From NCBI GenBank assembly GCA_023392945.1, contig JAEWNB010000136.1, positions 3,050-67,049 of the forward strand: DNA of 64,000 nt. Direction: 5' to 3'. The first letter of the stretch is position 1. The number at the start of each line of letters is the position of its first letter. The stretch is from Bacteroidota bacterium. GTDB taxonomy: Bacteria > Bacteroidota > Bacteroidia > Bacteroidales > WCHB1-69. The notes under the pieces were generated by a model. The model had not been told where the DNA came from. It did not search any database and saw nothing but the letters and a program-made list of their open reading frames with translations. A program made the translations under genes and the position numbers. Shown here one piece after another: positions 1,803-60,809 of the stretch.

Positions 1803-4800
1803 ATGAACATTAAATCTTTGGGAGTCATCCTAACTTTTATCACATTTTTTATTCAAACATCTGATATTCAAGCACAAATTATTCAAAAGTCTTATACCAT
1901 CGAATGGCAGGATCATCTTATTTTCTCGCCTGATGAGAATAACACCATTGAATTACTATACTTTAAAGATGCAATTTCTGACGAAAAATTTCCTTCGTTG
2001 CCACTTTTTTTTGAAAAAATTCCAATTAATGATTATTTTCAGGACTACACATACACAATAGGCAATATTCAGTATGCTCCCCTTTCCAAAGGTGAATTGG
2101 AACTAATTCCTAAGGATTTCAATCAATCTGAATTAAAAATCAACATCCGGACAGTAATTGAAAAAAAGAACTATTTCACTGCCATTACGTTCCTTCCAAT
2201 TATAAAAAACAGAGATGGCAATTATGTCAAAATCACCTCTCTAAGTTTCACCTATCAGGGGGCAAGCAAATCAAAAAGCCTCAAATCCCGATCCTATGCA
2301 GAAAACTCTGTATTACAATCCGGAAATTGGTATAAAATATCCATTTCCAGGAATGGTATTTTCAAAGTAACTTATGATGACCTTGTCAAATTAGGAGTTC
2401 CCGTTTCCGGTCTGGCTTCTTCCAATATTTCCCTATTCGGTAATGGCGGGGGCAAACTTGCTGAAAAAAATAGTGTAGGTCGCTTTGATGATTTGCAGGA
2501 AAATCCGATTCAGCTATTTGATGGCGGGGACAACTCTTTCGACAAAGGAGACTATTTTATTTTTTATGGTCAGGGTCCACACACTTGGGAATATTCAACA
2601 ATTACAAATTATTTCACCCACTCTTACAATATTTATAGTGACTACGCTTACTATTATATCAACACAGGTGCCGGAATAGGAGAAAAGAAAAGGATTGTTA
2701 CCGTTGACAATTCATTCATGGCTGCCAATCAAAATGCCTCAACATATACGCATTATGATTTTTATGAAGTTGATGAAACCAACTTTGGGGAATCGGGACA
2801 GAAATGGTTTGGCGACCTTTTTGATATCACCACAGAGCATACCTATTCCTTTTCATTACCTTCCTATATTGCCACCTCTGCCAGAATATCTCTTGCCGGG
2901 GCTTTTATTTCTGCAACCCCTTCCTATATTCAAGTTTATGCTAACGATAATTATATAGGAAGATTAAGTGCCGGGACTGTTTCAGGAGATAACATTGCCT
3001 TATACAGTGATGCAGATTTAACTTTTACTCCCTCTTCTTCGACCATTAAGTTAACTCTTAATTACAACAAGCCCAATTCATCTTCTTCTGCTTATCTTGA
3101 CTGGATTGAGTTACAAGCTACTTGTAATTTACAGATGCATTCGGCACAGGTGCCCTTTTGCAATACACAAACGATAGGGACAGGAAACATTACCCAATAT
3201 TCCATTTCAAATGCAAATGCCAACACAACTGTTTGGGATGTTACAAATCCCACCAATGCATTCCGCATGGGAGGAACATTGGCTGACGGCACTTTTGCTT
3301 TCAAATCTCCTTCGGATACGTTGCATAAGTTTGTTGCTTTCAACGGAAGCAGCTATTATTCCGTCAATAGTGTCGGAAAAGTGAGCAATCAGAATCTTCA
3401 CAACTCGGGTGAGACAGAAATGGTGATTGTGACCTATCCCGACTTCAGTTCTCAGGCAGAACGTTTGGCACAATACAGAAGAACCCATGATGGCTTAACG
3501 GTTAAAGTGGTCACTCCACAACAGGTATACAATGAATTTTCATCAGGGGCACAGGATCCTACAGCAATAAGAGATTATATGAAGCTGATTTACGACAAAA
3601 GCGGAGGAAAAAATCCAAAGTATCTTTTATTGGTTGGAAGACCTTCTTACGATTACAGAGGCAGAGTGACCGGAACAAAAAATTATGTTCCCAATTACCA
3701 GTCAAACTCATTAATTAATGAAACAGATTTCCGTTCCAATGACGACTATTTCGGTTTACTTGACGAAAATGAAGGAGCTGATTGCATCGGAATGGTTGAC
3801 GTATCCATTGGGCGATTTCCGGTAAATAGTCTGGCTCAAACCAAGATTGCAATTGACAAGACACTCCGATATTCTGCTGAAAGCAATCTTATTTCGGATG
3901 TCAATTCTCCGTTGGTTTCCAATCTTGCCGACTGGAGAAATGTATTTACTTTTGTTGCGGACGATCAGGATTGTTCAACCCATATAAGCACTGCTGATCT
4001 TTCTGCCATATCAGTTGCCAACAGCAACAAAAACATTAATTTCGATAAAATATATTGTGATGCTTACCAGCAGGTTTCCTATTCCGGAGGACAGCGATAT
4101 CCGGATGTAAACGATGCCATTAATAACCGCATGCAAAGAGGTTCTCTGATATTCTCCTACATTGGACATGGCGGCGCAAACGGATGGGCAGTTGAAAGAA
4201 TTCTTGAAATTTCTGATATGAATAAATGGACCAATCTTTACAATCAACCGTTAATGGTAACTCTAACGTGTGAATTTGCCTGGTATGACCGGAAAGTTAC
4301 TTCTCCCGCAGAAATGATTTTCTTAAATCAAAACGGGGGAGCTGCAGGATTAATCACCACTTCGCGTGTGGCTTTTACAGGATCTAACCATCAGTATGCA
4401 ATGAAACTGTTTTCGGGCGTTTTCGATTTGGAAGATAATCATTACAAAACATTCGGAGACCTCAACAGAATTGCCAAAAACGGTGCCGGTGGTGCTATCG
4501 GGGGTCTGAATATGATTTTTTTGATGGGTGACCCTTCTCTTAAACTGGCTGTTCCAAGATACAATGTATTGACTGATTCTATTAACGGAATATCCGTCAG
4601 TGGCAACTTGGATACCCTAAAGGCCCTTTCAAAGGTGACAATTAAAGGGAGGATTACGGACGAAAACGGCGACTTACTCTCTGATTTCAATGGAAATGTT
4701 TTCCCATCGGTTTTTGATAAAGCCATCACACAAGGAACATTACAAAACGACCCTACCAGCTGTTACTACGAATTTGAAGTACAGAAGAGTGTCCTCTTTA

Positions 4801-44194: not shown

Positions 44195-44758
44195 ATGAGA
44201 CACGCGAAAAGAATTAACCATTTAGGAAGAACCAGCTCACACAGAGAAGCAATGCTGTCAAATATGGCTTCTTCACTGATTAAACATAAAAGAATTTCAA
44301 CTACTACTGCTAAAGCAAAAGCACTGAGACTCTATGTTGAACCTCTTATTACCCGTAGTAAGAATGATACTACCCACTCAAGACGTATGGTATTCTCATA
44401 CTTACAGGATAAATTTGCAGTTACCGAACTGTTCAGAGAAATTGCAACCAAGGTAGCTACCCGTCCGGGTGGATATACCAGAATCCTTAAAACAGGCTTC
44501 CGCCAAGGTGATAATGCCGAAATGTGCATTATTGAACTGGTTGACTATAACGAAACTTACACCGCTAGCGATGAAAAGAAGAAAGTTGCCAAAACCAGAC
44601 GTAGCCGTAAATCGGGCGCCAAAGCAACTGATTCTAAAGCTGAAGAAACTCCTGTTACCGAAACTACTGCGCCAATTGCTGAAACTACTGAGCCAACTGC
44701 TGAAGCTACTGAACCTGTTGCTGATGCTGCTCCTGAAGAAGAAGCAAAAGCTGAATAA
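44195..44758 (+). CDS. rplQ: 50S ribosomal protein L17 with an acidic low-complexity C-terminal tail
   Basis: 187 aa. [21 protein letters not shown]... followed by the repetitive tail [37 protein letters not shown]. Confidence 0.95.
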
Positions 44759-47070: not shown

Positions 47071-50000
47071 TTACTGTTTTATCAATTTTAAATAATATAA
47101 CTTATGTTTTACCGTAATCAAGCGGACAATATAGGTCCCGGTGCTATAATCTGCAACTGAAAAGATAGTATTATTATACGTCTTTATTTTTTCTCCCGAT
47201 ATGGAGAAAACGGTAATTTCATAAACTTGATCGGGATCTACACCGGTCACAATTACTCTATCATTTGCAGGATTGGGAATCAGGGAAGGTTGTACAATTT
47301 CATTTTTAATGTCTGGCGTTATTTCGAAATCAAGGGAAGGTAAGAGTTCATTTCCGGAAATATTGAGACGTCTGAAATTTTGAGGAATTAATTCTAAAAA
47401 TTCTTTTGCAAGGATACAATAGGTCATATGACAAATCATACTTTCATCCCAACACACCAAAACATGAAAACATATTTCTTCATCATTATTTGCCATTTGA
47501 TTCAATTGTCCGTAATTTAACATAAGTATTCCATCTAAATTAATTGGTGGGTTATAATAATAATCGACAATTTGCGGCGGATCACTCCAAAAGGCAAGTA
47601 ACCCGGTACTATTTCCGGGTATAAGTGCATTAAATTTAAAATAGGAGGTTTGATGGGGCGAACTGAAGTCTTCCATGAAACTAAATGAAAAATCATCAAA
47701 ATTACAATCACTCACCGTGCATTCTTCAAAATTGAGCGGAACACTGAAAGTTTCTTCGCACTTGGTACAAGGATCATATAATATGAATTCAATATCGGAT
47801 AATGAGTAATTTAGTACTTTAAATTCGAAAGAAAGCTCTATACAGTCTCCCGGCACTAAAGATACCGGAAGAGATGAAATTGAAGTTATTTCTCCATCAG
47901 AATTGGTATATAACTCATCAAAACAAAAATGATTATTTCCCAAATTGCAGATATTAACGGTTACTTTATAAAACAGTTTACATCCTTCAGCCATACAGTT
48001 GCATCCTAAAACTGTCACCTGTATATCTTTACATCCGCAATTCAATTTAGGATCAAGTGTCAGAGTCGGAGAAACGGCTATACAGCCCGGCGAATAGTTG
48101 GTTTCAAGATGATAGTTTCCGAAAGATGGTAGCGTCAGCAACGGAGAATCCCCCATTCCGGATTGAATTATATTGTTGTTATAATACCATTTCCATGGTT
48201 TATATAAAGGTATAAAACGAAAAATGGAAAGAGTATCAATAAAGTCTCTTTCGCATTTTGTATAACAACCTGTAAGTAAAGCGTCGTATTTGGGAGCAGG
48301 ATTGATTAAAAATGAGTCGATTTCGGATTTACATCCATAACTATCTATATAATATGCAGTAGTATATCCGGGAGTATAAATAAACACTTGATTGGAGTAA
48401 AATCCATTATTCCAGAATACATTTTGTTGTGGATTAACAGTTCCCAAAATCACATCAGATTCGTGAATACAACTGTCTCCCACATAGCAAATCACGGGGG
48501 CAATGGGACGGGGGTGCACTGTTACGGTTGCAGTTGTGACGGCACTGCAATGGTCGTTACTTACGTTTAGTGTTACATGGTAGAGACCGCTCTGTTCAGG
48601 CAGAAACACTATATTAGGATCTGTAAATGAATTTGTTGACTGGTCTGGATACTCAATTTCCCATAAATAGGAGTTGCTGCTTCCGGTATTTCCAAATAAT
48701 TTCACTGAATCACCCTCACAATAATCCGTTTCACCCGATATATTGGCAATCGGAGGACTATAGAATCCTACATTGGTCATCTTTTCATCAATGCACCCTA
48801 TATTGTTGACGACTCTTACAATATAATCTCCGGTAGCATAAGTTGTATAACTGTTAATAGAATTGGTAATATTCGCAGGACTCCATGTATAATTTGAAGG
48901 AGGAGAAGCCGGAGAGTAAACAATATTTCTTCCAGTGCCGACACAAACAACATTACCGACAGGTTTTAAAAGTCCATCTAAATCATTTTCAAATGCTCTA
49001 ATCGAAGCTTGTGAAGTAATAAGGCAATTGTTGGAATCAGCCACGGTTAACGTAATTGTATAAGGATTAGGATTCTCCTGATATGTATGATAGGGAGCAG
49101 TGGCATACAGGTAGGAGCCGTCTCCAAAGTTCCAAAACAAAAAGGCAGGATTTCCCTGAATTGTAGCATTCATTTGTACAGGGGTTCCGGCACAGACAGA
49201 AGATGGGACATCCATCCCTACAATTGAATTTGTAGGATATATCATAATATATTTACTCAGCTCACAACCCGAATTATGCATTGTAACAGTATAATTTGTC
49301 GTAGAAGCAGGTAGAGTTATGGGAAACATAATATTATCAGTATTGGCATTCATAGAAATCGAGCCTATAATGGAGCCTTCTCTTTTAATGGTAAATGTCC
49401 GTGAAGGGATTGAATAGCTTGCCCGATATTGTGAATTATCCAAGATTCTTATTCCGTGAGCTGAACAATCGTAGTACAAATAAAAATCCGGCACACATAA
49501 TATTTCAACAGTTTTTATTCCCCTATAACAAGAGTCATTATAATTTGCTGAAGCAAAAACATCATAATATCCTGCATTGTAAAATTCCATTTCGGTATAA
49601 TTTCCATAGGAAGGGTTGATATCGGCTGAAGGTGATGAAGCCCAATGTACTAATGATCCAGGTAAAACAGGACTATCTACATGAAAAGTCCCGGAAGTAC
49701 AAGATATAGATTCCGACACATTAATGCCGCGGCAAACACTTCCTGTATTTGCATCTTCTATCAAGAGACAATTAGAAGCTGAGCACATTGTTTGAGAATT
49801 GGTTACAGTGCAACAATAGTTCCCGTAACCTGCAAATGGGCAAATCGAGCTTGTTTCCGAAAGAGGGGTTCCGTTATAGCTCCATTGATAAGTACAATTA
49901 ATTTGCTCCGAAACGGTAATATCACCGTTGCTTTCGGAAGGCATTTGCGTTACGGTTGCCGAAGGAGAAGGACGTATGTGAATGTTGCTTGTAACAACTG

Positions 50001-52194
50001 ATGGAGCACAATTTTGAAACGGAGTATATTCCAATTGAACATCATAATATCCTCCTTCCGGAAAAATATAAAATATAGTATCCCCATATAGGATATTGTT
50101 GTTGATACTCCATTTATATTGGTTGTCAATATGACTTCCTCCTATTGCATAGAAAATTACGTTATCCCCTGAACATGCTGGAGAAGGGAAAGAAATCTCC
50201 GGCAAAATAATCATGCTTACATCAATTGGTAATGTTGCATATTCTATTGAGTCTGAACAAAATGTTCGTTTTAAAATAATATGAACATCACCTATAACAG
50301 AGATATCAAAATAATTTACTATAAAAGTAGCGGTATTATCGGTATTGTTCTCTTGTATGCCGATTGCTTCTTCGGGTTCTACAGACCATTCGTATAGAAC
50401 GTCGGGAGATTGATCCGGTACTGTCAATGTCAAAAAAGAGTTTGCACAAACAGTTAATGTGTCTGGAAAGCCGGTATTTGATAACTGAAAGGGACTTACT
50501 TGATGAACATAAGCCTCTGATCGGCATCCGTACTGTTGATTTATTTGATAGACATTTATACTACAAACATTATCTCCATAATTGAATGTAACGGAATTTC
50601 CATCAGCTACCAAAGGATTAGCAGACTGGCACTGAGCTTCCCAAGAAAGATAATATTGAACATCGGTCGGCTCGGATTCTAATAATAAATAAGAATTAGG
50701 ACAAGCAATATTATTTCCCCTCACAGAAGTAACTGCAGGAGGCAATTCAATAACTTCAGTAAAGAATTTGGCCTGATTACAATAGTATTGATTGTCTGCA
50801 GTGATACAATAGGACCCCGAATCGGAAAATAAATATTGTAAACTATCATTGTATTCAGTATAAATCAAAACATTGTCTTTGAATATTTTCCATTCAACAT
50901 TTACATTGTCATTGTTAGTAAATAATCCAAAAGCCCCTTCACAAATTTTACTATTATTACTTTCTATCTCCAACACAGGTAGTACTTCAATTTGTTTAGA
51001 AGTATTATAAGGTCCACAATTTAAAAAATCACATTCATATTCTACAGATATGGTATAGCTGTCTTCTCGCAAAAATTCTATCATTAATTGGTTTGCTGAT
51101 TCATACGGATGAATAATATAATCATTAGAAGGAGGATTTGTCACATTTCTTGGTGTTATTGTCCATTGATAAGACGTTGATCCCCAAAGTGGAAGTTCAA
51201 ATAAATAAATTTGATTTTCACACAACTTTATTGGTCCGTTAATGGGAATTTCATTTGAAATAACAGGAATTGTCTTTGAAAGTTGTCCCGGACAAATTTC
51301 ATTTCCACATAAAAAACCATCCAAAGAGATTATTCCATAGCCGCTTTCAGGATGATGCCATTGTACAGAAATTTTTGGGGTATTTTGTCCGGAAATGATA
51401 GTTCCCCCTTCTACACTCCAATAGTAATAATTACAATCGTTAAATGCTGAATAATTCATTTGACTACCTCCACATACAGTTCCATAGCAAGATAACTTTA
51501 AGTCTGTACCATCTTTAATTCTAATTCTATATTTTTCCTCAGCCCCACATCCACAATCATTCATCACATAATGATAGATTGTGGAAATGTATGGTTGATT
51601 ATAAAATATGGTATAATTTTCAGTTGTAGCATCAGAACCTATTTCACTTGTCCAATAATTTCCGGTTATAGGTACCGTTTCTGAAGTTGACTCATCAAAA
51701 AAAGAAATTGTCTCATATTGACATATTTCGATTATTTTTTCTCCATCTTCAATAAAATAATCAGGGATGGATGATGAAGCAATGGTTGGGCTTTCAATTA
51801 ATACAACATCTATACTTGTACTGCAATAATTCCCGTCAGTTGTCAAAACAGTTACTTCAATTCTTCCAACATCAGAAGCATTTCCCCATCTAACCCATAT
51901 AGAGGATCCTTCATTATCAAATGACCAAGAAGAATCCCCAGATACACTCCATGAATAATTCGATGCATTTTCACAAATAGCAGTAAAATGTTGACTTGTA
52001 TTACTGCATTGTACAACATAATTATCTACATTTACGTTATTCAATAACCCGGCCATTTCGAGAAAATATTCCGTTAACGTACAGTCTGCGCTAAAATATG
52101 TTATTATCTGAACATTACAGCTATCTTGTGCCATAATTTTATCTGCCAAGATAAAACATAATAACATTACAAAAAAGAATTTAATTTTTTTCAT
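47071..52194 (-). CDS. giant Cys-rich T9SS cargo protein with a PKD domain and repeated Ig-like modules
   Basis: 1707 aa with a signal peptide and many regularly spaced Cys. PKD signature WNFGDGSYLYATAPYHTYQENPNPYTITLTV. C-terminal PNPANDRVIVTG...GTYIVRLIT...LKLIKQ is a T9SS CTD. Confidence 0.7.
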   Translation of the reverse strand: MKKIKFFFVMLLCFILADKIMAQDSCNVQIITYFSADCTLTEYFLEMAGLLNNVNVDNYVVQCSNTSQHFTAICENASNYSWSVSGDSSWSFDNEGSSIWVRWGNASDVGRIEVTVLTTDGNYCSTSIDVVLIESPTIASSSIPDYFIEDGEKIIEICQYETISFFDESTSETVPITGNYWTSEIGSDATTENYTIFYNQPYISTIYHYVMNDCGCGAEEKYRIRIKDGTDLKLSCYGTVCGGSQMNYSAFNDCNYYYWSVEGGTIISGQNTPKISVQWHHPESGYGIISLDGFLCGNEICPGQLSKTIPVISNEIPINGPIKLCENQIYLFELPLWGSTSYQWTITPRNVTNPPSNDYIIHPYESANQLMIEFLREDSYTISVEYECDFLNCGPYNTSKQIEVLPVLEIESNNSKICEGAFGLFTNNDNVNVEWKIFKDNVLIYTEYNDSLQYLFSDSGSYCITADNQYYCNQAKFFTEVIELPPAVTSVRGNNIACPNSYLLLESEPTDVQYYLSWEAQCQSANPLVADGNSVTFNYGDNVCSINVYQINQQYGCRSEAYVHQVSPFQLSNTGFPDTLTVCANSFLTLTVPDQSPDVLYEWSVEPEEAIGIQENNTDNTATFIVNYFDISVIGDVHIILKRTFCSDSIEYATLPIDVSMIILPEISFPSPACSGDNVIFYAIGGSHIDNQYKWSINNNILYGDTIFYIFPEGGYYDVQLEYTPFQNCAPSVVTSNIHIRPSPSATVTQMPSESNGDITVSEQINCTYQWSYNGTPLSETSSICPFAGYGNYCCTVTNSQTMCSASNCLLIEDANTGSVCRGINVSESISCTSGTFHVDSPVLPGSLVHWASSPSADINPSYGNYTEMEFYNAGYYDVFASANYNDSCYRGIKTVEILCVPDFYLYYDCSAHGIRILDNSQYRASYSIPSRTFTIKREGSIIGSISMNANTDNIMFPITLPASTTNYTVTMHNSGCELSKYIMIYPTNSIVGMDVPSSVCAGTPVQMNATIQGNPAFLFWNFGDGSYLYATAPYHTYQENPNPYTITLTVADSNNCLITSQASIRAFENDLDGLLKPVGNVVCVGTGRNIVYSPASPPSNYTWSPANITNSINSYTTYATGDYIVRVVNNIGCIDEKMTNVGFYSPPIANISGETDYCEGDSVKLFGNTGSSNSYLWEIEYPDQSTNSFTDPNIVFLPEQSGLYHVTLNVSNDHCSAVTTATVTVHPRPIAPVICYVGDSCIHESDVILGTVNPQQNVFWNNGFYSNQVFIYTPGYTTAYYIDSYGCKSEIDSFLINPAPKYDALLTGCYTKCERDFIDTLSIFRFIPLYKPWKWYYNNNIIQSGMGDSPLLTLPSFGNYHLETNYSPGCIAVSPTLTLDPKLNCGCKDIQVTVLGCNCMAEGCKLFYKVTVNICNLGNNHFCFDELYTNSDGEITSISSLPVSLVPGDCIELSFEFKVLNYSLSDIEFILYDPCTKCEETFSVPLNFEECTVSDCNFDDFSFSFMEDFSSPHQTSYFKFNALIPGNSTGLLAFWSDPPQIVDYYYNPPINLDGILMLNYGQLNQMANNDEEICFHVLVCWDESMICHMTYCILAKEFLELIPQNFRRLNISGNELLPSLDFEITPDIKNEIVQPSLIPNPANDRVIVTGVDPDQVYEITVFSISGEKIKTYNNTIFSVADYSTGTYIVRLITVKHKLYYLKLIKQ

Positions 52195-53834: not shown

Positions 53835-56800
53835 TTACAAAATCTCTTCAGGGAATTCTTCTCTCGTTTCAATTTCATTTTGATGATGGGACACTTTTCT
53901 TTTGTCCAATCTTTCAAAAGATAGCCAATAGGAAACAGGAAGAACGGTAACCACAAAGAGCATGGAGAACCAGGTTCCGAAGCAAATTACGGTTCCCATG
54001 GGAGCCCACAGAGCACTATTGCTCAAAATCATCGGAATAACCCCCATGGAAGCAGCGGCTGAAGTTAAGAAGATGGGGCGCATACGACGTTTCCCCGCTT
54101 CAAGAGCTGCATCATGCGCCGATTTTCCGAAATTGATGCGCTGATCTTCGGCATAATCGTACATAATAATGCCATTCCGGACAATAATGCCCATCAAAGC
54201 TACAAGACCCAAAACTGAGGTGAGACTGTATTCCATTTGCATCACCGATAACCCAATGACCGCCCCGAAAATGGAGAGACAGGAGATTCCGAGAATAAGG
54301 AGGGCCAAGGAGACCTTTTTAAAATGAAAGACCAGAATCATAAAGATTATCAATACTGCTATTACAATACCCTTGAGAAGCATGGGCCATATTACACCAT
54401 CCTGCTCTTTTGTACCACCCCACGTTAGCTCCACATCGTCAGGAATCGGCACCTTATCCCGAATCATTTTTTGGACATCCTTGAACACATTAACCACATT
54501 CTCACCTCTTTTTACATCTGACAAAATACTGATGCAATAGACTCCGTTTCTTCTGACTATCTGACCTGTGGACCAGTCGGGTGTGATATCGGCAATTTGC
54601 CCGAGTGGAACAGCTACGCCGGTAATGGAAGAGATGTATTCACCGCGTAATTTATCAAATCCAATGGGCTTCTCCTGTTCGGCTTTCAAGACCACCTGAA
54701 CGGGATAGTCTCCTTCCCAAACGGTTGTGACGGGAATACCCTCACTGTATTTCAAGGCAAGATTGGTAGCAACAGTGGGCTTGGAAATGCCCAAACGATT
54801 GGCCTCTTCATTATTGATTTCAACTGCCACGCCCGGCAACTCTCCCTGAAAATTGTTTCTCACCAACTGCAACTTACCCATCCTGCGCATTTCATCCATC
54901 ACTCGTGCGGCAATTTGTTTAAGTTTTTCGGGATTATTGCCGCTTAAGCGTATTTCAATCGGAGAGGAAGCAAAGACATAATCAAGCTGCTTAAACCTGA
55001 CTCCGGCATTGGGAAAATAATTGGCATATTTGTCGGCATAATCATCCAGCACCTTTTCTGTATTCTTAATGGTATTGGTACTGACTATAAACTGAGCATA
55101 ACTCGGAGAGGGAAAGTTGGGTGCATAACAGGTATGAAACCTCGGCGAAGTAGTCCCTACAAACTTGGTGATGGAGGTAATCCTTTTGTCCTTCATCAAC
55201 ATTTTCTCGAGAGAATCGGCAACAGCAGCGGTTGCACTAAGGGGAGAGCCCTGAGGAAGATAGATCTCAACGGCAAACTGATTTCTCTCGGTGATGGGCA
55301 TCATCTTCTGTGGCAAGGTGAGAAATACCAATACGCCAACCAATACGGCTGCAATGGCAATGCCGATAGTGATTTTGGGGAAACGAAAGGCAAACTGAAT
55401 CAAAATGTTGTATTTCTCCTGAATGAAAGTGGCTACCCGCTGTTTTTTAACATGATTTCCTGCAGAGTGAAGTCCTTTTTTAATGAGTTTATATTGGACA
55501 AAGGGAATGAAAAGTATGGCTACCAACAGAGAGACTCCCAGCGTAATAGTAACCGTCCAGGGGAAGGCCAAAAGGAAATCGCGGAACATGCCGCTTGAAG
55601 TGAATAAGAAAGGATAAAAAGTGATACTGATGGCCAAGGTTGCCGAAAGAATCGACTTGAAGAGCTCACGGGCACTATCAACAGAAGCATTCCAACGCGG
55701 AATACCGTGGTCTATTTTTTCAAGATAATTGTCAATGATGACGACGGAATCATCCACAATAATCCCCAATACAGCAATGAGTCCGGCGAGAGTGACGGTA
55801 TTGAGCTCCAGTCCGATGGCATAGAGAATTCCCACGGATATAAAGATGGTGATGGGAATGGTCATGGCAGCTATGGAAGCTACTTTAATGGGCTGTAAGA
55901 CCATCACTACGAGTAAAACGGTGGCAATGGCGATGAGCATCTCGCGAAGGAAAGTGTTGACGGAATGGTTAACCACCTGCGATTGGTCGGCAACACGGAA
56001 GAAGGTAACATCATCGGGCAACTCCTCTTCAAAGTCGTCCAGCACTTTCTTGATCTCTTTGCCGTATTGGACAATATTATTCCCTTCCAACATTTCGATG
56101 GAAAGCAGAATCGACTTACTGCCGTTGTTGGTAATATAACTGGTAGGTTTAGGATATTCCCTGACAATACGGGCAATATCCTTTAAGCGGATAAGAGCCC
56201 CCGTAGGGTCGGTATAGATGATTTGCTCCCCGACATCCTTCTCGTTGGCAAAAGTCTCCGAAACATGAATCGGGGACGAGAAATTGTCGTCTTCAACAGT
56301 GCCGCTGACAGTGGTAAACCCCTGACTGAAAAGAGTCGCCAGCAAGATGGAACTGTTGAGATGATAAGCCGCCAGCTTATCCTTGTCAAGATATACCGAA
56401 ATCTGTTCATTCTGAAGACCGTAATGACGCAAATTTGAAACAGATTCTATTTTTCGGAGACGGTTTTCAAGTTCCTTAAGATATCCTTCCAACTGACGGT
56501 AGGTCTTATCTTTGGATTCTATCGAAATGAGCAGGGCGGAGGTCTCTCCGAAATCGTTGCTTGCCATCAGTGCGGCAACTCCCGAGGGCAACGACTTTTT
56601 AAAATCTACCAGCCCATGCCTGAACTTCGACCAGAACTCATCGTCGTTTGTCACATTATCATTCAACACCACATAGACAATTACCATTCCGTCCTTTGAA
56701 ACAGAATAGGTTCTTACCTTATTAACCTCCTTATAGCTGAAGAGATAACTTTCCAGGGGCTGTGTCAACTGCTCTTCCACCTGCGACGAGTTTGCGCCCG

Positions 56801-56966
56801 GATAAACACCTACCACCAATCCCTCCCGAATGGTAAAGATCGGAAATTCCTGCTTAGGCATCACAAACAACCCATATATACCAAAAAGCACCAACAGCGC
56901 AACCAGGAGAATAATGACATTTTTATTCTTCATGGCAAATTCTATGGGTTTTGTAATTCGATTCAT
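53835..56966 (-). CDS. efflux RND transporter permease subunit (AcrB/HAE1-like)
   Basis: 1043 aa with a 12-TM, two-large-loop architecture. Overlaps the adaptor gene by 4 nt. Confidence 0.9.
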   Translation of the reverse strand: MNRITKPIEFAMKNKNVIILLVALLVLFGIYGLFVMPKQEFPIFTIREGLVVGVYPGANSSQVEEQLTQPLESYLFSYKEVNKVRTYSVSKDGMVIVYVVLNDNVTNDDEFWSKFRHGLVDFKKSLPSGVAALMASNDFGETSALLISIESKDKTYRQLEGYLKELENRLRKIESVSNLRHYGLQNEQISVYLDKDKLAAYHLNSSILLATLFSQGFTTVSGTVEDDNFSSPIHVSETFANEKDVGEQIIYTDPTGALIRLKDIARIVREYPKPTSYITNNGSKSILLSIEMLEGNNIVQYGKEIKKVLDDFEEELPDDVTFFRVADQSQVVNHSVNTFLREMLIAIATVLLVVMVLQPIKVASIAAMTIPITIFISVGILYAIGLELNTVTLAGLIAVLGIIVDDSVVIIDNYLEKIDHGIPRWNASVDSARELFKSILSATLAISITFYPFLFTSSGMFRDFLLAFPWTVTITLGVSLLVAILFIPFVQYKLIKKGLHSAGNHVKKQRVATFIQEKYNILIQFAFRFPKITIGIAIAAVLVGVLVFLTLPQKMMPITERNQFAVEIYLPQGSPLSATAAVADSLEKMLMKDKRITSITKFVGTTSPRFHTCYAPNFPSPSYAQFIVSTNTIKNTEKVLDDYADKYANYFPNAGVRFKQLDYVFASSPIEIRLSGNNPEKLKQIAARVMDEMRRMGKLQLVRNNFQGELPGVAVEINNEEANRLGISKPTVATNLALKYSEGIPVTTVWEGDYPVQVVLKAEQEKPIGFDKLRGEYISSITGVAVPLGQIADITPDWSTGQIVRRNGVYCISILSDVKRGENVVNVFKDVQKMIRDKVPIPDDVELTWGGTKEQDGVIWPMLLKGIVIAVLIIFMILVFHFKKVSLALLILGISCLSIFGAVIGLSVMQMEYSLTSVLGLVALMGIIVRNGIIMYDYAEDQRINFGKSAHDAALEAGKRRMRPIFLTSAAASMGVIPMILSNSALWAPMGTVICFGTWFSMLFVVTVLPVSYWLSFERLDKRKVSHHQNEIETREEFPEEIL

Positions 56967-57982
56967 CGGATCGTTATTTTAGTCCCTTCACTTACTTTCT
57001 GATAACCCTCCACAATCACTTTATCGCCAAGGTCAATTCCCCCTGCAATCACAATTCCCTCCTCCGACAATCCGTCGGTTTGTACGATCCGTTTGGATGC
57101 CTTCTCCCCTATGGCTACCCAAACATAATGTTCTCCCTCCGAAGAGAGCATCACTGCCCTATTGGGAAGAATAATGCTCTTGCTTGTATCTCCCGACAAA
57201 AGAGCTACCTTGCACACCATCCCCGGAATGAGCTTTCTTTGGGGATTCATAACGGGAATTTCAATATCGTATGAGTGGGAAATCGGATTGGCAACCACTC
57301 CTATTTTATCCACTTTTGCCTTAAAGGTGGCGTTGTTGAGAGCAGGAATTACCATGTTGGCCGCCTGTCCCCGTTTAATCGAAGAAATGAGATTCTCGGG
57401 AATAGCCACCTTCACCTTAACCTTATCCATATTGAGCAGACTAAAAACCTGAACGCCCGGCAATACATTGACTCCGGGCTCCACAAAGCGCTTGCCGATG
57501 ATACCGGAAAAAGGAGCGGTCAATTTTGCTGCCTCCAGATTCTTACGGGCTATCTTTTCCGCCGACTGTGCCTTTTCCAAATTGGTTTGCATCTCAACCC
57601 ACTGAATTTCAGGCAGACTTCCTTTTTCATAAAGCTGCTTCATTCTCCCGTAAGCATCCTCCGCCTGACGGAGCAAAGCCGCTGCAGCATCATGAGTACT
57701 CTCCAGATTGCTGCTGTTCACCTCAGCCAGCAACGCTCCCTTTTGGACAAAATCACCCTCCCCGACATATATCCGCTCCACATTTCCCGGAACCGAAAAG
57801 CTCAGAGAAGAGGCATAATCCTCCTTCACCGTACCCACAAAATGTTGTGCTTCCACCTCCGAAGAAGCAGCCGCCACCAACACCTTAACAGGAATGGCCT
57901 CCGAGGCTCGCTCCCCTGAATGATGACCACACCCGCATAAGAGAAAAATAGGAATTATAATCCAATACCTTTTTTTTACCAT
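56963..57982 (-). CDS. efflux RND transporter periplasmic adaptor (membrane fusion) lipoprotein
   Basis: 339 aa with a lipobox (LLCGCG). Coiled-coil hairpin and barrel regions typical of the HlyD_D23 family. Confidence 0.85.
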   Translation of the reverse strand: MVKKRYWIIIPIFLLCGCGHHSGERASEAIPVKVLVAAASSEVEAQHFVGTVKEDYASSLSFSVPGNVERIYVGEGDFVQKGALLAEVNSSNLESTHDAAAALLRQAEDAYGRMKQLYEKGSLPEIQWVEMQTNLEKAQSAEKIARKNLEAAKLTAPFSGIIGKRFVEPGVNVLPGVQVFSLLNMDKVKVKVAIPENLISSIKRGQAANMVIPALNNATFKAKVDKIGVVANPISHSYDIEIPVMNPQRKLIPGMVCKVALLSGDTSKSIILPNRAVMLSSEGEHYVWVAIGEKASKRIVQTDGLSEEGIVIAGGIDLGDKVIVEGYQKVSEGTKITIR

Positions 57983-58017: not shown

Positions 58018-58025
58018 CAAAAATA
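58018..58025 (-). promoter_or_regulatory. -7 promoter box (TATTTTTG on the minus strand) for the RND operon
   Basis: Plus-strand caaaaata, 35 nt upstream of the adaptor ATG at 57982. Confidence 0.45.
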
Positions 58026-58081
58026 TTACAATTATTGAAATAAACATCTCTTAAAAAAACTCCGATATTATTTAATATTGG

Positions 58082-58376
58082 ATTTCATTCCACCACTTTT
58101 TTTGCCCATTTTTTCACGATTTCAATTTCGTAGTTACGAAAAAAAATTTAGAAGCTTCGTTTTACAAATTTAGAAGCTTCGTTTTTAAATTTAGAAGCTT
58201 CGTTTTTAAATTTAGAAGCTTCGTTTTTAAATTTCATGAATACGTTGTTAATTTCATGCTCATGAAAAAAAATTTCTTGCCCATGTTTTACAAATTTCAT
58301 GCGCACAAAAAATAATTTCTTGCTCATGTTTTGTAAATTTCATGCGCACAAAAAATAATTTCATGCGCATGAAATT
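58082..58376. repeat. array of about 14 phased 20-22 bp units (ATTT - variable dyad core - A/T tract), ending in a perfect 20-bp palindrome
   Basis: Unit starts (ATTT) are at 58146, 58168, 58189, 58210, 58231, 58251, 58272, 58294, 58315, 58337 and 58358, plus degenerate units upstream. There are three identical units ATTTAGAAGCTTCGTTTTTAA plus one variant (58146). Two 43-bp super-repeats occupy 58272-58314 and 58315-58357. The terminal AATTTCATGCGCATGAAATT (58357-58376) is perfectly palindromic. Confidence 0.85.
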
Positions 58377-58458
58377 GTTCACCGGCAAATACCCATTCAA
58401 AACCCCTCTCTTTTAATCTTAAAAAGGATCAAATCGGAGTGCATTTTTTTAACCGGCC

Positions 58459-58556
58459 ACTTTTAGAAAATATAAGTACATAAATATTTTTCATCGAAAA
58501 GAATAATTATTAATTTTGTGAGCTTTTAAAGCATTATATAAAAAAAAGTAAATAAT
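58459..58556 (+). repeat. direct repeat copy A (conserved leader core)
   Basis: 58511-58556 (TAATTTTGTGAGCTTTTAAAGCATTATATAAAAAAAAGTAAATAAT) matches 60025-60070 with 1 mismatch. Flanking similarity is weaker. Confidence 0.8.
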
Positions 58557-58704
58557 GAACTATCCCCACTAATGTGGGATGGTAGTGCAATAAAAAGGGA
58601 AAAGGATTAGGGGGGAATAAGTAAGTTGAGAGTCATACACGATGCAATCTCACAAAAGAGTTTCAGAATATAATAATAATCAATTTTATATAAGAGAAAA
58701 TATT

Positions 58705-59097
58705 ATGGATAACCTTACTATTAAAGAAAAAATAATTGCTCTGGAGACAGCAGCTCTAGAAGCTTGGCACAATGGGAATCCTTCACCCTATCTGGAACTT
58801 TATTCGAAGGACTTTACCTATTTCGATCCTGTACATGAAAGGCGGCTTGACGGTTGGGACAAGATAAAAGATTTGTATGAAAGCATGCGAGGAACGGTTA
58901 AAATGGATAAATTCGAAATGATAAATCCCGTTGTACAACAAACCAATACAATGGCAGTCCTAGCCTACAATCTGCACTCATACTTAGGGGAAACGCTTTG
59001 GAAGGAAAATTGCACCGAAGTGTATAGGCTTGAAGAAAATAACGAATGGAAAATCATTCACAGCCATTGGTCATTGACTAACCCTTCAATTAATTAA
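58705..59097 (+). CDS. DUF4440/SnoaL-like (NTF2 fold) protein
   Basis: I prefer the start MDNLTIKEKIIALETAALEAWHNGN... The C-terminal WKIIHSHWS is typical of DUF4440 proteins. The track ORF adds 21 upstream codons from 58642. Confidence 0.6.
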   Translation: MDNLTIKEKIIALETAALEAWHNGNPSPYLELYSKDFTYFDPVHERRLDGWDKIKDLYESMRGTVKMDKFEMINPVVQQTNTMAVLAYNLHSYLGETLWKENCTEVYRLEENNEWKIIHSHWSLTNPSIN

Positions 59098-59964: not shown

Positions 59965-60070
59965 ACTTTTGAAAATAAAGTACCAAAAAAGAAAAAAATA
60001 TTTTTTATAGAAAAGAAAAAATCCTAATTTTGTGAGCTTTTAAAACATTATATAAAAAAAAGTAAATAAT
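59965..60070 (+). repeat. direct repeat copy B (conserved leader core)
   Basis: See copy A. 60025-60070 matches 58511-58556 at 45 of 46 positions. Confidence 0.8.
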
Positions 60071-60191
60071 AACCTCATAGCCTTCAGAAGTGCATAGTAG
60101 TCATATACTAATATGGATTAAAATAGTTTTACTAGGAATAGGGTGAATATATAAACGAGTTAGGTCCAATGCAAAAAAAACACCAACTACA

Positions 60192-60809
60192 ATGAAAAAT
60201 GAGCATAATGAAAATATAATTCGATTTCTAAAGGACAATATAGAACCATTGGATGATAGTATTTATGGATTAAGCTACAGAGCATCTGCATACTTGACTG
60301 ATGGAGTCTATTTGCCTTGTGTGATTTTTAGAAATCCAAAGTCAACAGTTAATCTTGCACTACGTAGATTCAAAGAAGAACAAAAAGGTAAAGGGATTTT
60401 TGGCAAGTCCGCTGCAAGTTACTTTAAGATTGTTGAGCATTTTGTGACAAATGGCAATCGGATTAATGATTACGACATTGAAAAAGTTGAAAAGAGTAAA
60501 TATGCCTTCCCGATTTCTACTTTAAAACAAATTCGCGGCGAGACAACTATGGGTTGGACTGGATTTACAGCAAAAATGAAAGATGGAAAATGTTTTGGAT
60601 TTGGCACCCGCTTTCTAAATGAATTCTTCCAAATGCCAGATAACTATTCGACTGATGATATAATTGAGATTGTAAATCATAGCTATGTTTCAAAAAACGG
60701 AGAAATACATTCACATAAAGTTCCCTTTTCAAATTGGTCAGATGATTATGAAAAGGATTTGATTTATAGAGAACGACCTTATTTTATTTGCTATATTGAC
60801 AATTTATAA
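60192..60809 (+). CDS. hypothetical protein
   Basis: 205 aa, no recognisable family and no signal peptide. Coding-like composition. Confidence 0.5.
   Translation: MKNEHNENIIRFLKDNIEPLDDSIYGLSYRASAYLTDGVYLPCVIFRNPKSTVNLALRRFKEEQKGKGIFGKSAASYFKIVEHFVTNGNRINDYDIEKVEKSKYAFPISTLKQIRGETTMGWTGFTAKMKDGKCFGFGTRFLNEFFQMPDNYSTDDIIEIVNHSYVSKNGEIHSHKVPFSNWSDDYEKDLIYRERPYFICYIDNL

Follow-up and report, generated by a model that had tools for sequence, protein, structure and literature searches.

A hypervariable minisatellite of palindromic bricks, probably a member of a small interspersed family, in uncultured Bacteroidales

Results

The window, that is the whole 64-kb stretch of DNA that was analyzed, carries a minisatellite array that has a divergent MFP/RND efflux operon on one side and a SnoaL-like gene on the other. 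The surroundings are chromosomal (a ribosomal-protein/SecY region of a Bacteroidales chromosome). The features of this locus (locus A) are:

53835-56966: AcrB-type pump gene, following the MFP gene (Pfam)
56963-57982, minus strand: RND membrane-fusion protein (MFP) gene, divergent neighbor of the array (Pfam)
58018-58025, minus strand: exact Bacteroidetes-type -7 box TATTTTTG, outside the array and conserved in the array-less relative L019
58082-58124, no strand: left flank GATTTCATTCC...TTTTTTTGCCCATTTTTTCACGATTTCA, conserved among array-bearing strains (strain comparison)
58125-58376, no strand: minisatellite array (Tandem Repeats Finder, unit segmentation, shuffle-tested matches, identity with the independent assembly L004)
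58146-58230, no strand: GAAGCTTC block of four bricks, the first 22 bp long and the others identical 21-mers
58251-58376, no strand: CATG-type block, six bricks forming a 43-bp super-repeat, terminated by a 20-bp palindrome
58377-58410, no strand: right flank or "tail" GTTCACCGGCAAATACCCATTCAAAACCCCTCTC
58459-58561, plus strand: promoter-like leader, repeated at 59965-60075
58511-58518, plus strand: exact -7 box TAATTTTG, 135 bp downstream of the array
58706-59097, plus strand: SnoaL/DUF4440-like gene, with the ATG at 58706 used by gene callers (130 aa)

The promoter model applied was that of Bacteroidetes, with TTTG at -33 and TAnnTTTG at -7, the latter consensus reportedly going back to Bayley and co-workers in 2000. 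The box at 58018-58025 is likely the promoter of the MFP/RND operon, and that at 58511-58518 is likely the promoter of the SnoaL-like gene. The mechanical ORF of the latter gene begins at 58642. Just 30 bp separate the SnoaL-like gene from a DUF8412 gene, and the genes to the right of the array vary by strain; in L013 a ParD gene follows the DUF8412 gene.

Segmentation resolved the array into 12 head-to-tail units (bricks) of 19-22 bp, covering about 250 bp. An earlier note on this DNA had counted about 14 units over some 300 bp; the array is real, but 14 units would require two degenerate ones in 58082-58123, which is conserved flank. Since the left flank holds at most two decayed units, it was left out of the brick count. 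Each brick consists of ATTT, a 10-bp dyad core and an A/T tail, the constant A/T frame (AAATTT...TTTTT or AAAAA) enclosing a self-complementary core. In order, the bricks are 21, 22, 21, 21, 21, 20, 21, 22, 21, 22, 21 and 19 bp long and their cores are CGTAGTTACG, AGAAGCTTCG (four times), CATGAATACG, CATGCTCATG, CTTGCCCATG, CATGCGCACA, CTTGCTCATG, CATGCGCACA and CATGCGCATG; by class there are one CGTAGTTACG, four GAAGCTTC and seven CATG-type units.

Tandem Repeats Finder reported 4.3 copies of AAATTTAGAAGCTTCGTTTTT at 58144-58234 (97% matches, score 166) and 2.8 copies of a 43-bp super-repeat at 58250-58371 (88%, score 181). With these periods of 21 and 43 and the segmentation, the array is a spacer-free run of head-to-tail units in the size range of a minisatellite (about 10-100 bp). 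The 21-mer is present in three exact copies and one copy with a single mismatch (0.03 expected from shuffles), and an exact 20-bp palindrome, AATTTCATGCGCATGAAATT, occupies 58357-58376. On the identical 21-mers with their variant, on the super-repeat and on the palindrome the earlier note was therefore right. The array is single-copy in the window, and the independent assembly L004 equals the window base for base, with 0 differences across the 660-bp spacer.

The symmetry of the cores was compared with that of shuffled sequences. In the array 77% of the cells were complementary, against 62% in shuffles, and none of 500 shuffles reached the observed value; slid controls gave 15-47%. Dyad symmetry is kept across the brick classes despite changes on both half-sites, the compensated pairs being GAA..TTC, GTA..TAC, ATG..CAT and CGT..ACG, with the A/T frame fixed and a two-turn spacing. 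The CATG-type block is predicted, on paper, to fold into a single long imperfect hairpin.

Several other readings of the repeat itself were tried and rejected. A KNEASKF heptad, encoded by the 21-bp period in a 59-aa minus-strand ORF, suggested a coding repeat, but the 43-bp super-repeat breaks the frame; this ORF has no Pfam family, and database searches with it found nothing but other strains' copies of this locus. A promoter array was discarded, the bricks being without a conserved TAnnTTTG box (they have a single exact copy, at 58172 on the minus strand, which L006 and L013 have lost) and a sigma-70-type scan remaining at shuffle level. No Rfam family matched at its gathering threshold; the matches that did appear were miRNA-hairpin-like and scored 19-29 bits, below their thresholds of 44-144. 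Any palindromic tandem repeat gives folding z-scores like those obtained (-5 to -8.5), which are thus not evidence of an RNA. A plasmid or phage origin was rejected, blastn against PLSDB and INPHARED giving no match, and a pattern scan of IMG/VR gave one chance match and no array.

Locus A is highly polymorphic. Seven distinct alleles were found among strains whose MFP is 96-100% identical, and the complete ones have 9, 12 or 13 units; two alleles are cut by contig ends, and their unit counts are lower bounds. The window allele, shared by L001 and L004, has 12 units. L006 and L045 have nine each (2 + 7) and differ from each other by one brick SNP, L013 and L014 share an allele of 13 (6 + 7), and L057 has 13 units including CGAAGCTTCG, TGAAGCTTCG and AGAAGCTTCT variants. 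The allele common to L015 and L016 has five GAAGCTTC units and at least three identical adjacent CCAAGCTTCG units, and that of L017 contains a GAAGATTC variant. The GAAGCTTC block is the part of the array with the greatest copy-number variability: other strains' complete arrays have two or six bricks of this type, and the two alleles cut by contig ends have at least five and at least six. Brick make-up varies as well, and mutated bricks are amplified side by side. Such runs of identical or newly mutated neighboring bricks are a signature of tandem duplication, so that the copy-number variation by slippage foreseen in the earlier note agrees with the alleles found. The terminal palindrome, perfect in the window, is imperfect in L006, L013 and L057. 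No allele departs from the constant frame or from the 21/22-bp (two-turn) period. The Logan contigs L002 and L003 end inside the GAAGCTTC block; breaks of short-read assemblies within the array are expected for exact tandem repeats.

The relative L019, whose MFP is 84% identical, has no array but retains the 65 nt that precede the MFP gene, -7 box included. Homology between L019 and the window stops at window position 58048, where the L019 contig ends. Homologous operons at 42-46% identity are also without a tandem repeat. Birth of the array in situ from a single proto-unit in L019 was considered and rejected, local alignment being at shuffle level.

Other loci were sought with a degenerate two-unit pattern that had 0 matches in 40 Mb of random 35%-GC sequence. 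The search found bricks, including identical 21-mers, at two further intergenic loci in metagenome contigs of related Bacteroidales DNA. At locus B (L026, L051 and L052) the smpB promoter is about 145 nt downstream of the array, which adjoins an IS element or a 53-bp minisatellite; at locus C (L047) a symE toxin gene and a Peptidase_S9 gene converge on the array with their 3' ends. By blastn, L052 is 95% identical to the window over 81 nt and L026 82% over 179 nt. Locus B is itself polymorphic, with GAAGCTTC bricks in L052 and L051 and CATG bricks in L026. The sample Ga0209099 yields all three loci, A (L045), B (L051) and C (L047), with near-identical bricks. In L051, locus B directly adjoins a complete IS whose inverted repeats are 68 nt long, and a DDE_Tnp_1_6 element lies next to locus B. 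An unrelated MerR gene is found downstream of smpB; otherwise regulators are absent next to all three loci.

Loci B and C have a common left module of about 130 nt (84-88% identity). The right flank of locus A (58377-58410) showed 66% identity over 38 nt to the right flanks at B and C, with z about 1 against shuffles, and a "tail" shared by locus A with B and C, suggestive by eye, was rejected as not significant. Since the flank similarity of A to B or C is not significant and three loci are known, it is the bricks themselves that carry the case for a dispersed family. A search for more loci by way of spurious ORFs inside arrays yielded nothing beyond locus A once more (L057) and a repeat protein (P0123) that is unrelated.

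Discussion

The array is probably a hypervariable minisatellite (VNTR) belonging to a small interspersed family, known from three loci in metagenome contigs, whose host lineage is uncultured Bacteroidales from sludge or digester-type metagenomes. Bricks would be gained, lost and diversified by slipped-strand mispairing and/or unequal recombination between bricks, hairpins formed by the self-complementary bricks probably assisting these changes, and fresh point mutations would spread into runs of adjacent units. Any effect on the RND operon or the SnoaL-like gene would be indirect: the spacing of the divergent promoters would shift in steps of about two turns, and hairpin-prone, easily melted DNA would be placed upstream of both. 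We judge such an effect to be weak or absent, and we infer for the family a lack of function and a route of spread between loci.

The same bricks could instead be the internal minisatellite of a BrickBuilt-type MITE mobilized in trans by an IS transposase, for example that of the DDE_Tnp_1_6 element at locus B. This is unlikely but has a modest chance of being right. It would explain the identical brick type at no fewer than three unrelated intergenic sites, the left module common to B and C and the complete IS abutting locus B, and composite elements of such a type exist in Bacteroidota (BrickBuilt, PMC4596501). A GGCAATTA(A/T)(C/T)CC motif resembling the IS inverted-repeat core occurs on the right side of the array in locus A and on its left side in locus B; however, the motif is weak, with a background of about 1 per 18 kb at up to two mismatches. 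Conserved terminal inverted repeats were not found flanking the array in the window, L026 or L047, and no significant flank is common to A and either B or C. The one candidate, an 8-bp inverted repeat at 58059/58428, was rejected, since it is not conserved between strains (L006 and L013 lack it).

Two readings give the array a role in regulation. In one, brick number, changing in two-turn steps, would heritably and reversibly shift expression from the divergent RND and/or SnoaL-like promoter. The array does have an exact -7 box on either side (58025, minus strand; 58511, plus strand), copy number varies among near-identical strains, the locus B array is likewise about 145 nt upstream of a -7 box, and BOX modules and BrickBuilt segments affect the expression of neighboring genes (PMC3049150, PMC4596501). 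However, the array stays clear of both boxes, lying upstream of each at a distance of about 100 bp (RND) and 135 bp (SnoaL-like), so that spacing within any core promoter is unchanged. The bricks contain no conserved TAnnTTTG box, locus C has no promoter context and the RND promoter is intact in the array-less L019, and we consider a contingency or tuning element improbable. In the other, the bricks would be a platform bound cooperatively on one helix face by a dimeric regulator or a nucleoid or ParR-like protein. Such binding would suit the excess of dyad symmetry over shuffles, the regular 21/22-bp period and the perfect terminal palindrome of the window, but the cores differ between bricks (GAA/TTC, GTA/TAC, ATG/CAT), and one sequence-specific protein would therefore be unable to read them all. 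Moreover, that palindrome is imperfect in three other strains, brick content turns over across strains and, the unrelated MerR apart, no regulator gene adjoins any of the three loci. The earlier note had considered a bank of operators for the RND operon; with no regulator adjacent, the RND promoter kept in L019 where the array is missing, and locus C situated between convergent gene ends, we give a binding platform little chance.

The integron-like reading of the earlier note fared worse. It likened the array to an attI with accessory recombinase-binding repeats followed by gene cassettes, and the strain-variable gene content to the right of the array and a leader repeated before two genes agree with this. 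The homology to the second leader, however, does not start with GTTCACC at 58377 but spans about 58459-58561 versus 59965-60075, some 80 bp further downstream, and the repeated leader lies upstream of the genes with the promoter box inside it. GTTCACC does not match the integron core GTTRRRY, and RYYYAAC...GTTRRRY core pairs 50-150 bp apart are absent from 58.3-64 kb. No tyrosine recombinase (Phage_integrase) is encoded by the 49 ORFs scanned (most ORFs of at least 100 aa), the divergent neighbor being the MFP gene, and an attC site would not fit into the 30 bp between the SnoaL-like and DUF8412 genes. The same type of array is present at the smpB and symE loci. The attI reading is already contradicted and has next to no probability.

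Scarcely more probable is a replication-origin iteron bank or an intrinsically curved upstream element, both also proposed earlier. Many plasmid iterons have the 21-22 bp spacing, and the A/T tracts are phased, but the cores vary between units, Rep and DnaA genes are missing from the vicinity, the array has no DnaA box, its context is that of chromosomal ribosomal-protein genes and PLSDB and INPHARED gave no blastn match. As for curvature, a wedge model, checked by reproducing the curved A4T4 versus straight T4A4 control, gave the array an end-to-end/contour ratio of 0.841, where the window averages 0.890 +/- 0.069. Among all 253-bp segments this value ranks at the 19th percentile, and it falls inside the spread given by mononucleotide shuffles. 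The array is neither a site for site-specific recombination nor a bank of iterons or operators. Occurrence of the same repeat family at unrelated intergenic sites, named in the earlier note as a finding that would refute its own proposal, is seen at loci B and C.

The sole unusual feature of the array is that its cores vary in sequence while their dyad symmetry persists. A neutral repeat model has no obvious prediction of dyad symmetry kept through two-sided half-site changes. The constant period and frame across alleles could reflect constraint rather than mere descent. That symmetry, and not sequence, is the conserved property of the bricks, with selection or hairpin-templated mutation behind it, is a speculative view to which we assign a small chance. 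If true, it would mean selection for hairpin or cruciform extrusion, for instance as a scaffold for a structure-specific protein upstream of promoters; alternatively, hairpin-templated (quasipalindrome-correcting) mutation would create palindromic bricks that are then amplified. Either version would make the bricks a self-diversifying repeat system with exchange between loci.

Regarded as a hypervariable minisatellite, the array explains why short-read assemblies break at this spot in this lineage, and it gives uncultured Bacteroidales of sludge or digesters a VNTR that can be used as it stands to tell strains apart. An integron or attI site and an origin are excluded here, which removes a false lead. 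The alleles are also a small natural data set of palindromic repeat cores altered on both half-sites, which bears on the origin and diversification of hairpin-prone repeats. If copy number tuned the efflux operon the array would be a new contingency locus, but the evidence is unfavorable to tuning.

Comparison with known systems

The likeness to integron attI/attC sites is one of position only, an array before a strain-variable set of small genes. There is no IntI, attC or GTTRRRY core, the repeats are of another kind and all the defining features tested failed. Plasmid iterons and ParR/parC-type centromeres share with the present array direct repeats at one or two helical turns. Those repeats, however, are near-identical sites for one protein and adjoin its gene, whereas the present array has variable cores and a chromosomal housekeeping context, and such a gene is absent.

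Closer precedents are interspersed minisatellite families, known from the same phylum and beyond: BrickBuilt (PMC4596501), MIRU (PMC3635867) and the boxB arrays of BOX (PMC3049150). BOX of Streptococcus pneumoniae (boxA-boxB(n)-boxC; Croucher et al. 2011, PMC3049150) is, like the present family, a dispersed composite repeat with a strain-variable internal tandem module. In both, longer arrays appear more variable and there is stem-loop potential. BOX differs in its conserved boxA and boxC ends, which have a TIR-like similarity to an IS, and in its more than 100 copies per genome. The boxB module is 45 nt long and of one sequence type, unlike the mixed bricks described here.

Units of about 46-101 bp, longer than the present bricks, characterize the MIRU, whose VNTR loci are said to have been described by Supply and colleagues. 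MIRU-VNTR of Mycobacterium tuberculosis (PMC3635867) and the present array are both interspersed intergenic minisatellites, and since their copy number varies among strains both are possible strain markers. Unlike the present bricks, MIRU units are GC-rich and not palindromic, occupy dozens of loci and are often co-transcribed within operons.

BrickBuilt of Porphyromonas gingivalis (Klein et al. 2015, PMC4596501) is, like the present array, from Bacteroidota. Both consist of spacer-free tandem bricks of about 20 nt that are always intergenic, species-restricted, present at several loci and variable in number among strains. BrickBuilt is described with a unit of 23 nt, the present array having one of 21/22 nt. 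BrickBuilt bricks have one consensus, whereas two or three classes with different palindromic cores coexist in the present array. A BrickBuilt element is bounded by a defined leader and tail that end in small inverted repeats, and a genome has 19 copies of it; for the present family no inverted-repeat ends were found, there are three loci only and shared flanks occur just between B and C. Promoter activity has been demonstrated for BrickBuilt and is not predicted for the present array. Going by the description of BrickBuilt, the present family would be a second, unrelated brick-built interspersed minisatellite of Bacteroidota.

A strain-variable brick array beside the efflux operon

The spacer between the divergent efflux operon and the SnoaL-like gene (locus A) contains a tandem array of bricks, each composed of ATTT, a 10-bp core and an A/T tail reading TTTT(A/T)(C/T)AA or AAAAA(A/T)A. 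An earlier note on this DNA had described about 14 units at 58082-58383; the tandem array was recovered, with 12 units at 58125-58376, and 58082-58124 proved to be a conserved flank without recognisable units. The perfect palindrome noted at 58357-58376 is exact. The consensus of the Bacteroidetes -7 box is TAnnTTTG, reportedly originating with Bayley et al. in 2000, and matches to it lie on both sides of the array.

Features of the locus
53835-56966, minus strand: AcrB-type pump gene, same efflux operon as the MFP gene
56963-57982, minus strand: membrane-fusion protein (MFP) gene of the two-gene efflux operon, left of the array
58018-58025, minus strand: exact -7 box of the efflux operon, outside the array
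58125-58376: tandem array, 12 units of 19-22 bp each, segmented on the constant ATTT frame
58144-58234: 21-bp repeat AAATTTAGAAGCTTCGTTTTT, 4.3 copies, 97% matches, score 166 (Tandem Repeats Finder)
58250-58371: 43-bp super-repeat, 2.8 copies, 88%, score 181 (Tandem Repeats Finder)
58357-58376: exact palindrome AATTTCATGCGCATGAAATT
58511-58518, plus strand: exact -7 box of the SnoaL-like gene, outside the array
58706-59097: SnoaL/DUF4440-like gene, right of the array

The cores follow in the order CGTAGTTACG, AGAAGCTTCG (four times), CATGAATACG, CATGCTCATG, CTTGCCCATG, CATGCGCACA, CTTGCTCATG, CATGCGCACA and CATGCGCATG. The 21-mer is present in three exact copies and one with a single mismatch (0.03 matches in shuffled sequences), and the 64-kb window holds no second copy of the array. 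An independent assembly (L004) showed 0 differences over the 660-bp spacer with the array, which excludes an artefact of assembly.

The window is chromosomal Bacteroidota DNA, with T9SS genes (PorP, PorV, C-terminal sorting domains), a ribosomal-protein/SecY/RpoA cluster, topoisomerase I and aminoacyl-tRNA synthetases. It is matched by ENA scaffold LEMO22-1...scaffold_170, and among named genomes the MAG 'Bacteroidetes bacterium WAS_Bin_9' is nearest. The efflux operon (53835-57982) has 45% GC versus 32-34% in its surroundings and resembles an island gained by horizontal transfer, with its edge at the array; synteny with L019, a relative with an 84% identical MFP, stops at about 58048. Elsewhere in the window, the gene for ribosomal protein L17 carries an in-frame 21-bp repeat, GAAACTACTGAGCCAATTGCT, in 3.1 copies within its C-terminal tail (44660-44724).

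Allelic variation at locus A

The locus in relatives was gathered using the MFP protein and a spurious ORF annotated within the array by gene callers. Seven alleles were found across strains with MFP identities of 96-100%.

Alleles of the array at locus A
Window, L001 and L004 (identical): 12 units; 1 CGTAGTTACG, 4 GAAGCTTC and 7 CATG-type
L006 and L045: 9 units; 2 GAAGCTTC and 7 CATG-type, with one brick SNP between them
L013 and L014 (identical): 13 units; 6 GAAGCTTC and 7 CATG-type
L057: 13 units; bricks 1-3 CGAAGCTTCG, TGAAGCTTCG and CGAAGCTTCG, and one AGAAGCTTCT brick
L015 and L016 (identical): at least 8 units (contig ends); 5 GAAGCTTC, then at least 3 identical CCAAGCTTCG
L017: at least 6 units (contig ends), among them a GAAGATTC brick

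The arrays differ by whole units between conserved flanks, and mutated bricks sit as identical adjacent copies, which together are the signature of slippage or unequal exchange. The earlier suggestion that copy number could vary by slippage was borne out, the complete alleles having 9, 12 and 13 units with mutated bricks duplicated side by side. Several k-mer assemblies stop within identical bricks. The strain of L045 (Ga0209099_1004168) shares about 93% identity with the window and lacks the gene for a 1707-aa PKD-domain protein with a T9SS sorting tail (47071-52194); this indel is specific to the strain and affects a protein that is secreted or at the surface.

L019 keeps the 65 nt that directly precede the MFP gene, -7 box included, and has no array, its sequence past window position 58048 being unrelated. 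In a relative with 77% identity the divergent neighbour is another gene, and no tandem repeat accompanies homologous operons of 42-46% identity. Because L019 and the remoter homologues are without it, the array is young, limited to roughly one species-level lineage and dispensable for the efflux promoter.

Bricks at other loci

A degenerate two-unit brick pattern, which fits all locus-A alleles and had 0 matches in 40 Mb of random 35%-GC sequence, gave 37 matches in JGI metagenome contigs; most were single and chance-like, and three kinds were real. Besides locus A of L045, these contigs contained locus B (L026, L051 and L052), where 5-7 bricks precede the -7 box of smpB by about 145 nt (SmpB Pfam E = 3.6e-57), and locus C (L047), with four bricks between the convergent 3' ends of SymE-toxin and Peptidase_S9 genes. 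The earlier note had given a repeat family scattered over unrelated intergenic sites as an outcome that would refute it, and this is what was found: bricks occur at unrelated intergenic loci, one of them without promoter context. Metagenome contigs of sample Ga0209099 contain all three loci.

Similarity to the window reached 95% over 81 nt in L052, with identical 21-mers, and 82% over 179 nt in L026. Bricks of locus B are GAAGCTTC in L052 and L051 and CATG in L026, indicating that this locus is polymorphic like locus A. Loci B and C have in common a left module of about 130 nt with two hairpins (84-88% identity), and locus A shares with them the bricks alone; a right-flank likeness seen by eye (AATTA[AC]C...CAAAA[AC]C) was not above shuffles.

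On the side away from smpB, locus B adjoins an IS element (DDE_Tnp_1_6 transposase, 68-nt inverted repeats; in L051) or a 53-bp minisatellite, CAGGTGCGTAGCACCGCCCCATTTGTAGCATAAACATCAACAACACAACAACC, of about 12 copies (L026:669-1334). Palindromic units like the 68-nt inverted repeat (GGCAAGTTCGCAGAACATTGCCGAC; L047:900-1180, L051:262-329 and 2091-2158) are another repeat family of this lineage; they occur solo or in tandem, and gene callers render them as a repetitive 193-aa 'protein' (P0123). The motif GGCAATTAACCC / GGCAATTATTCC, found close to the arrays, on the right at locus A (L006, L057) and on the left at locus B (L026, L051), is similar to the inverted-repeat core of the IS. With up to 2 mismatches allowed, its background is about one per 18 kb, and it may be due to chance or may mark a boundary or att-like direct repeat. 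An unrelated 33%-GC metagenome contig, L024, has a four-unit mini-array (3129-3215) of ATTTCATG...CATG style in which adjacent cores, CATGCCTATG and CATAGGCATG, are mutual reverse complements, so the brick style may be older or wider than this single lineage.

Dyad symmetry of the cores

The one unusual feature of the array is its dyad symmetry. When 26 distinct bricks, drawn from all loci, were compared, the outer four positions of the core could pair with their mirror positions in 77% of cells, versus 62% in shuffles (0/500 reached the observed value) and 15-47% in slid registers. Every core pair has changed on both sides (A-T/G-C, T-A/A-T, G-C/A-T), and therefore the GAA..TTC, GTA..TAC, ATG..CAT and CGT..ACG classes differ in a compensated way. 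As the bricks share descent, this evidence amounts to perhaps three independent events and is modest in weight. It fits either selection for palindromy (hairpins, cruciforms or a symmetric binder) or a hairpin-templated mutational process. A stable structure per brick is doubtful, since the short cores allow just 3-4 effective pairs, and more solely in AAAA-tailed units.

Candidate functions

The earlier note had likened the array to an attI site, with homology to a second cassette leader starting at GTTCACC (58377). No tyrosine recombinase was found in the 49 window ORFs scanned (most ORFs of at least 100 aa), there were no RYYYAAC...GTTRRRY pairs in 58.3-64 kb, GTTCACC falls outside GTTRRRY, and the first two 'cassettes' are separated by a 30-bp gap only. 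The homology actually spans about 58459-58561 and 59965-60075, upstream of genes and with a promoter box, which also speaks against an integron. This promoter-like leader of about 100 nt (core 80 nt 89% identical) carries the exact -7 box TAATTTTG, precedes two unrelated genes, the SnoaL-like gene and a 205-aa ORF (60192-60809), and may represent a promoter or 5'-UTR module that has been propagated. Against an iteron or origin stand the non-identical cores and the lack of any nearby rep or dnaA gene, of a DnaA box in the array and of plasmid or phage matches. Nor did the curved upstream element hold when curvature was predicted: in a Bolshoy-Trifonov wedge model, which correctly gave curved A4T4 and straight T4A4 as controls, the end-to-end/contour ratio was 0.841 versus 0.890 +/- 0.069 for all 253-bp windows (19th percentile, within the shuffle range).

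A promoter bank was rejected, as the sole exact -7 box in the array (58172, minus strand) is lost in L006 and L013 and sigma-70-like matches are at shuffle level. A structured RNA was likewise set aside: no Rfam family matched the array, and its strong folding z-scores (-5.1 to -8.5) follow trivially from the self-complementarity of the repeats, an origin also noted for BrickBuilt (PMC4596501). The 59-aa ORF in the array encodes a KNEASKF repeat whose frame is broken by the 43-bp period, and its database relatives all come from this locus in other strains, arguing against a coding repeat. The array may have a regulatory function, though this is not the favoured reading.

Nature of the array and known systems

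The array is a strain-hypervariable, probably interspersed minisatellite, real and tidy and of an already-known kind. The most likely mechanism would be replication slippage or unequal recombination between the self-complementary 21/22-bp bricks, with occasional brick transfer or conversion between loci. It is not classed as a MITE because terminal inverted repeats were sought around it and not found. Closest in architecture are BrickBuilt of Porphyromonas gingivalis, with intergenic, species-specific 23-nt bricks in variable number (PMC4596501), MIRU loci (PMC3635867) and the boxB arrays of pneumococcal BOX elements (PMC3049150).
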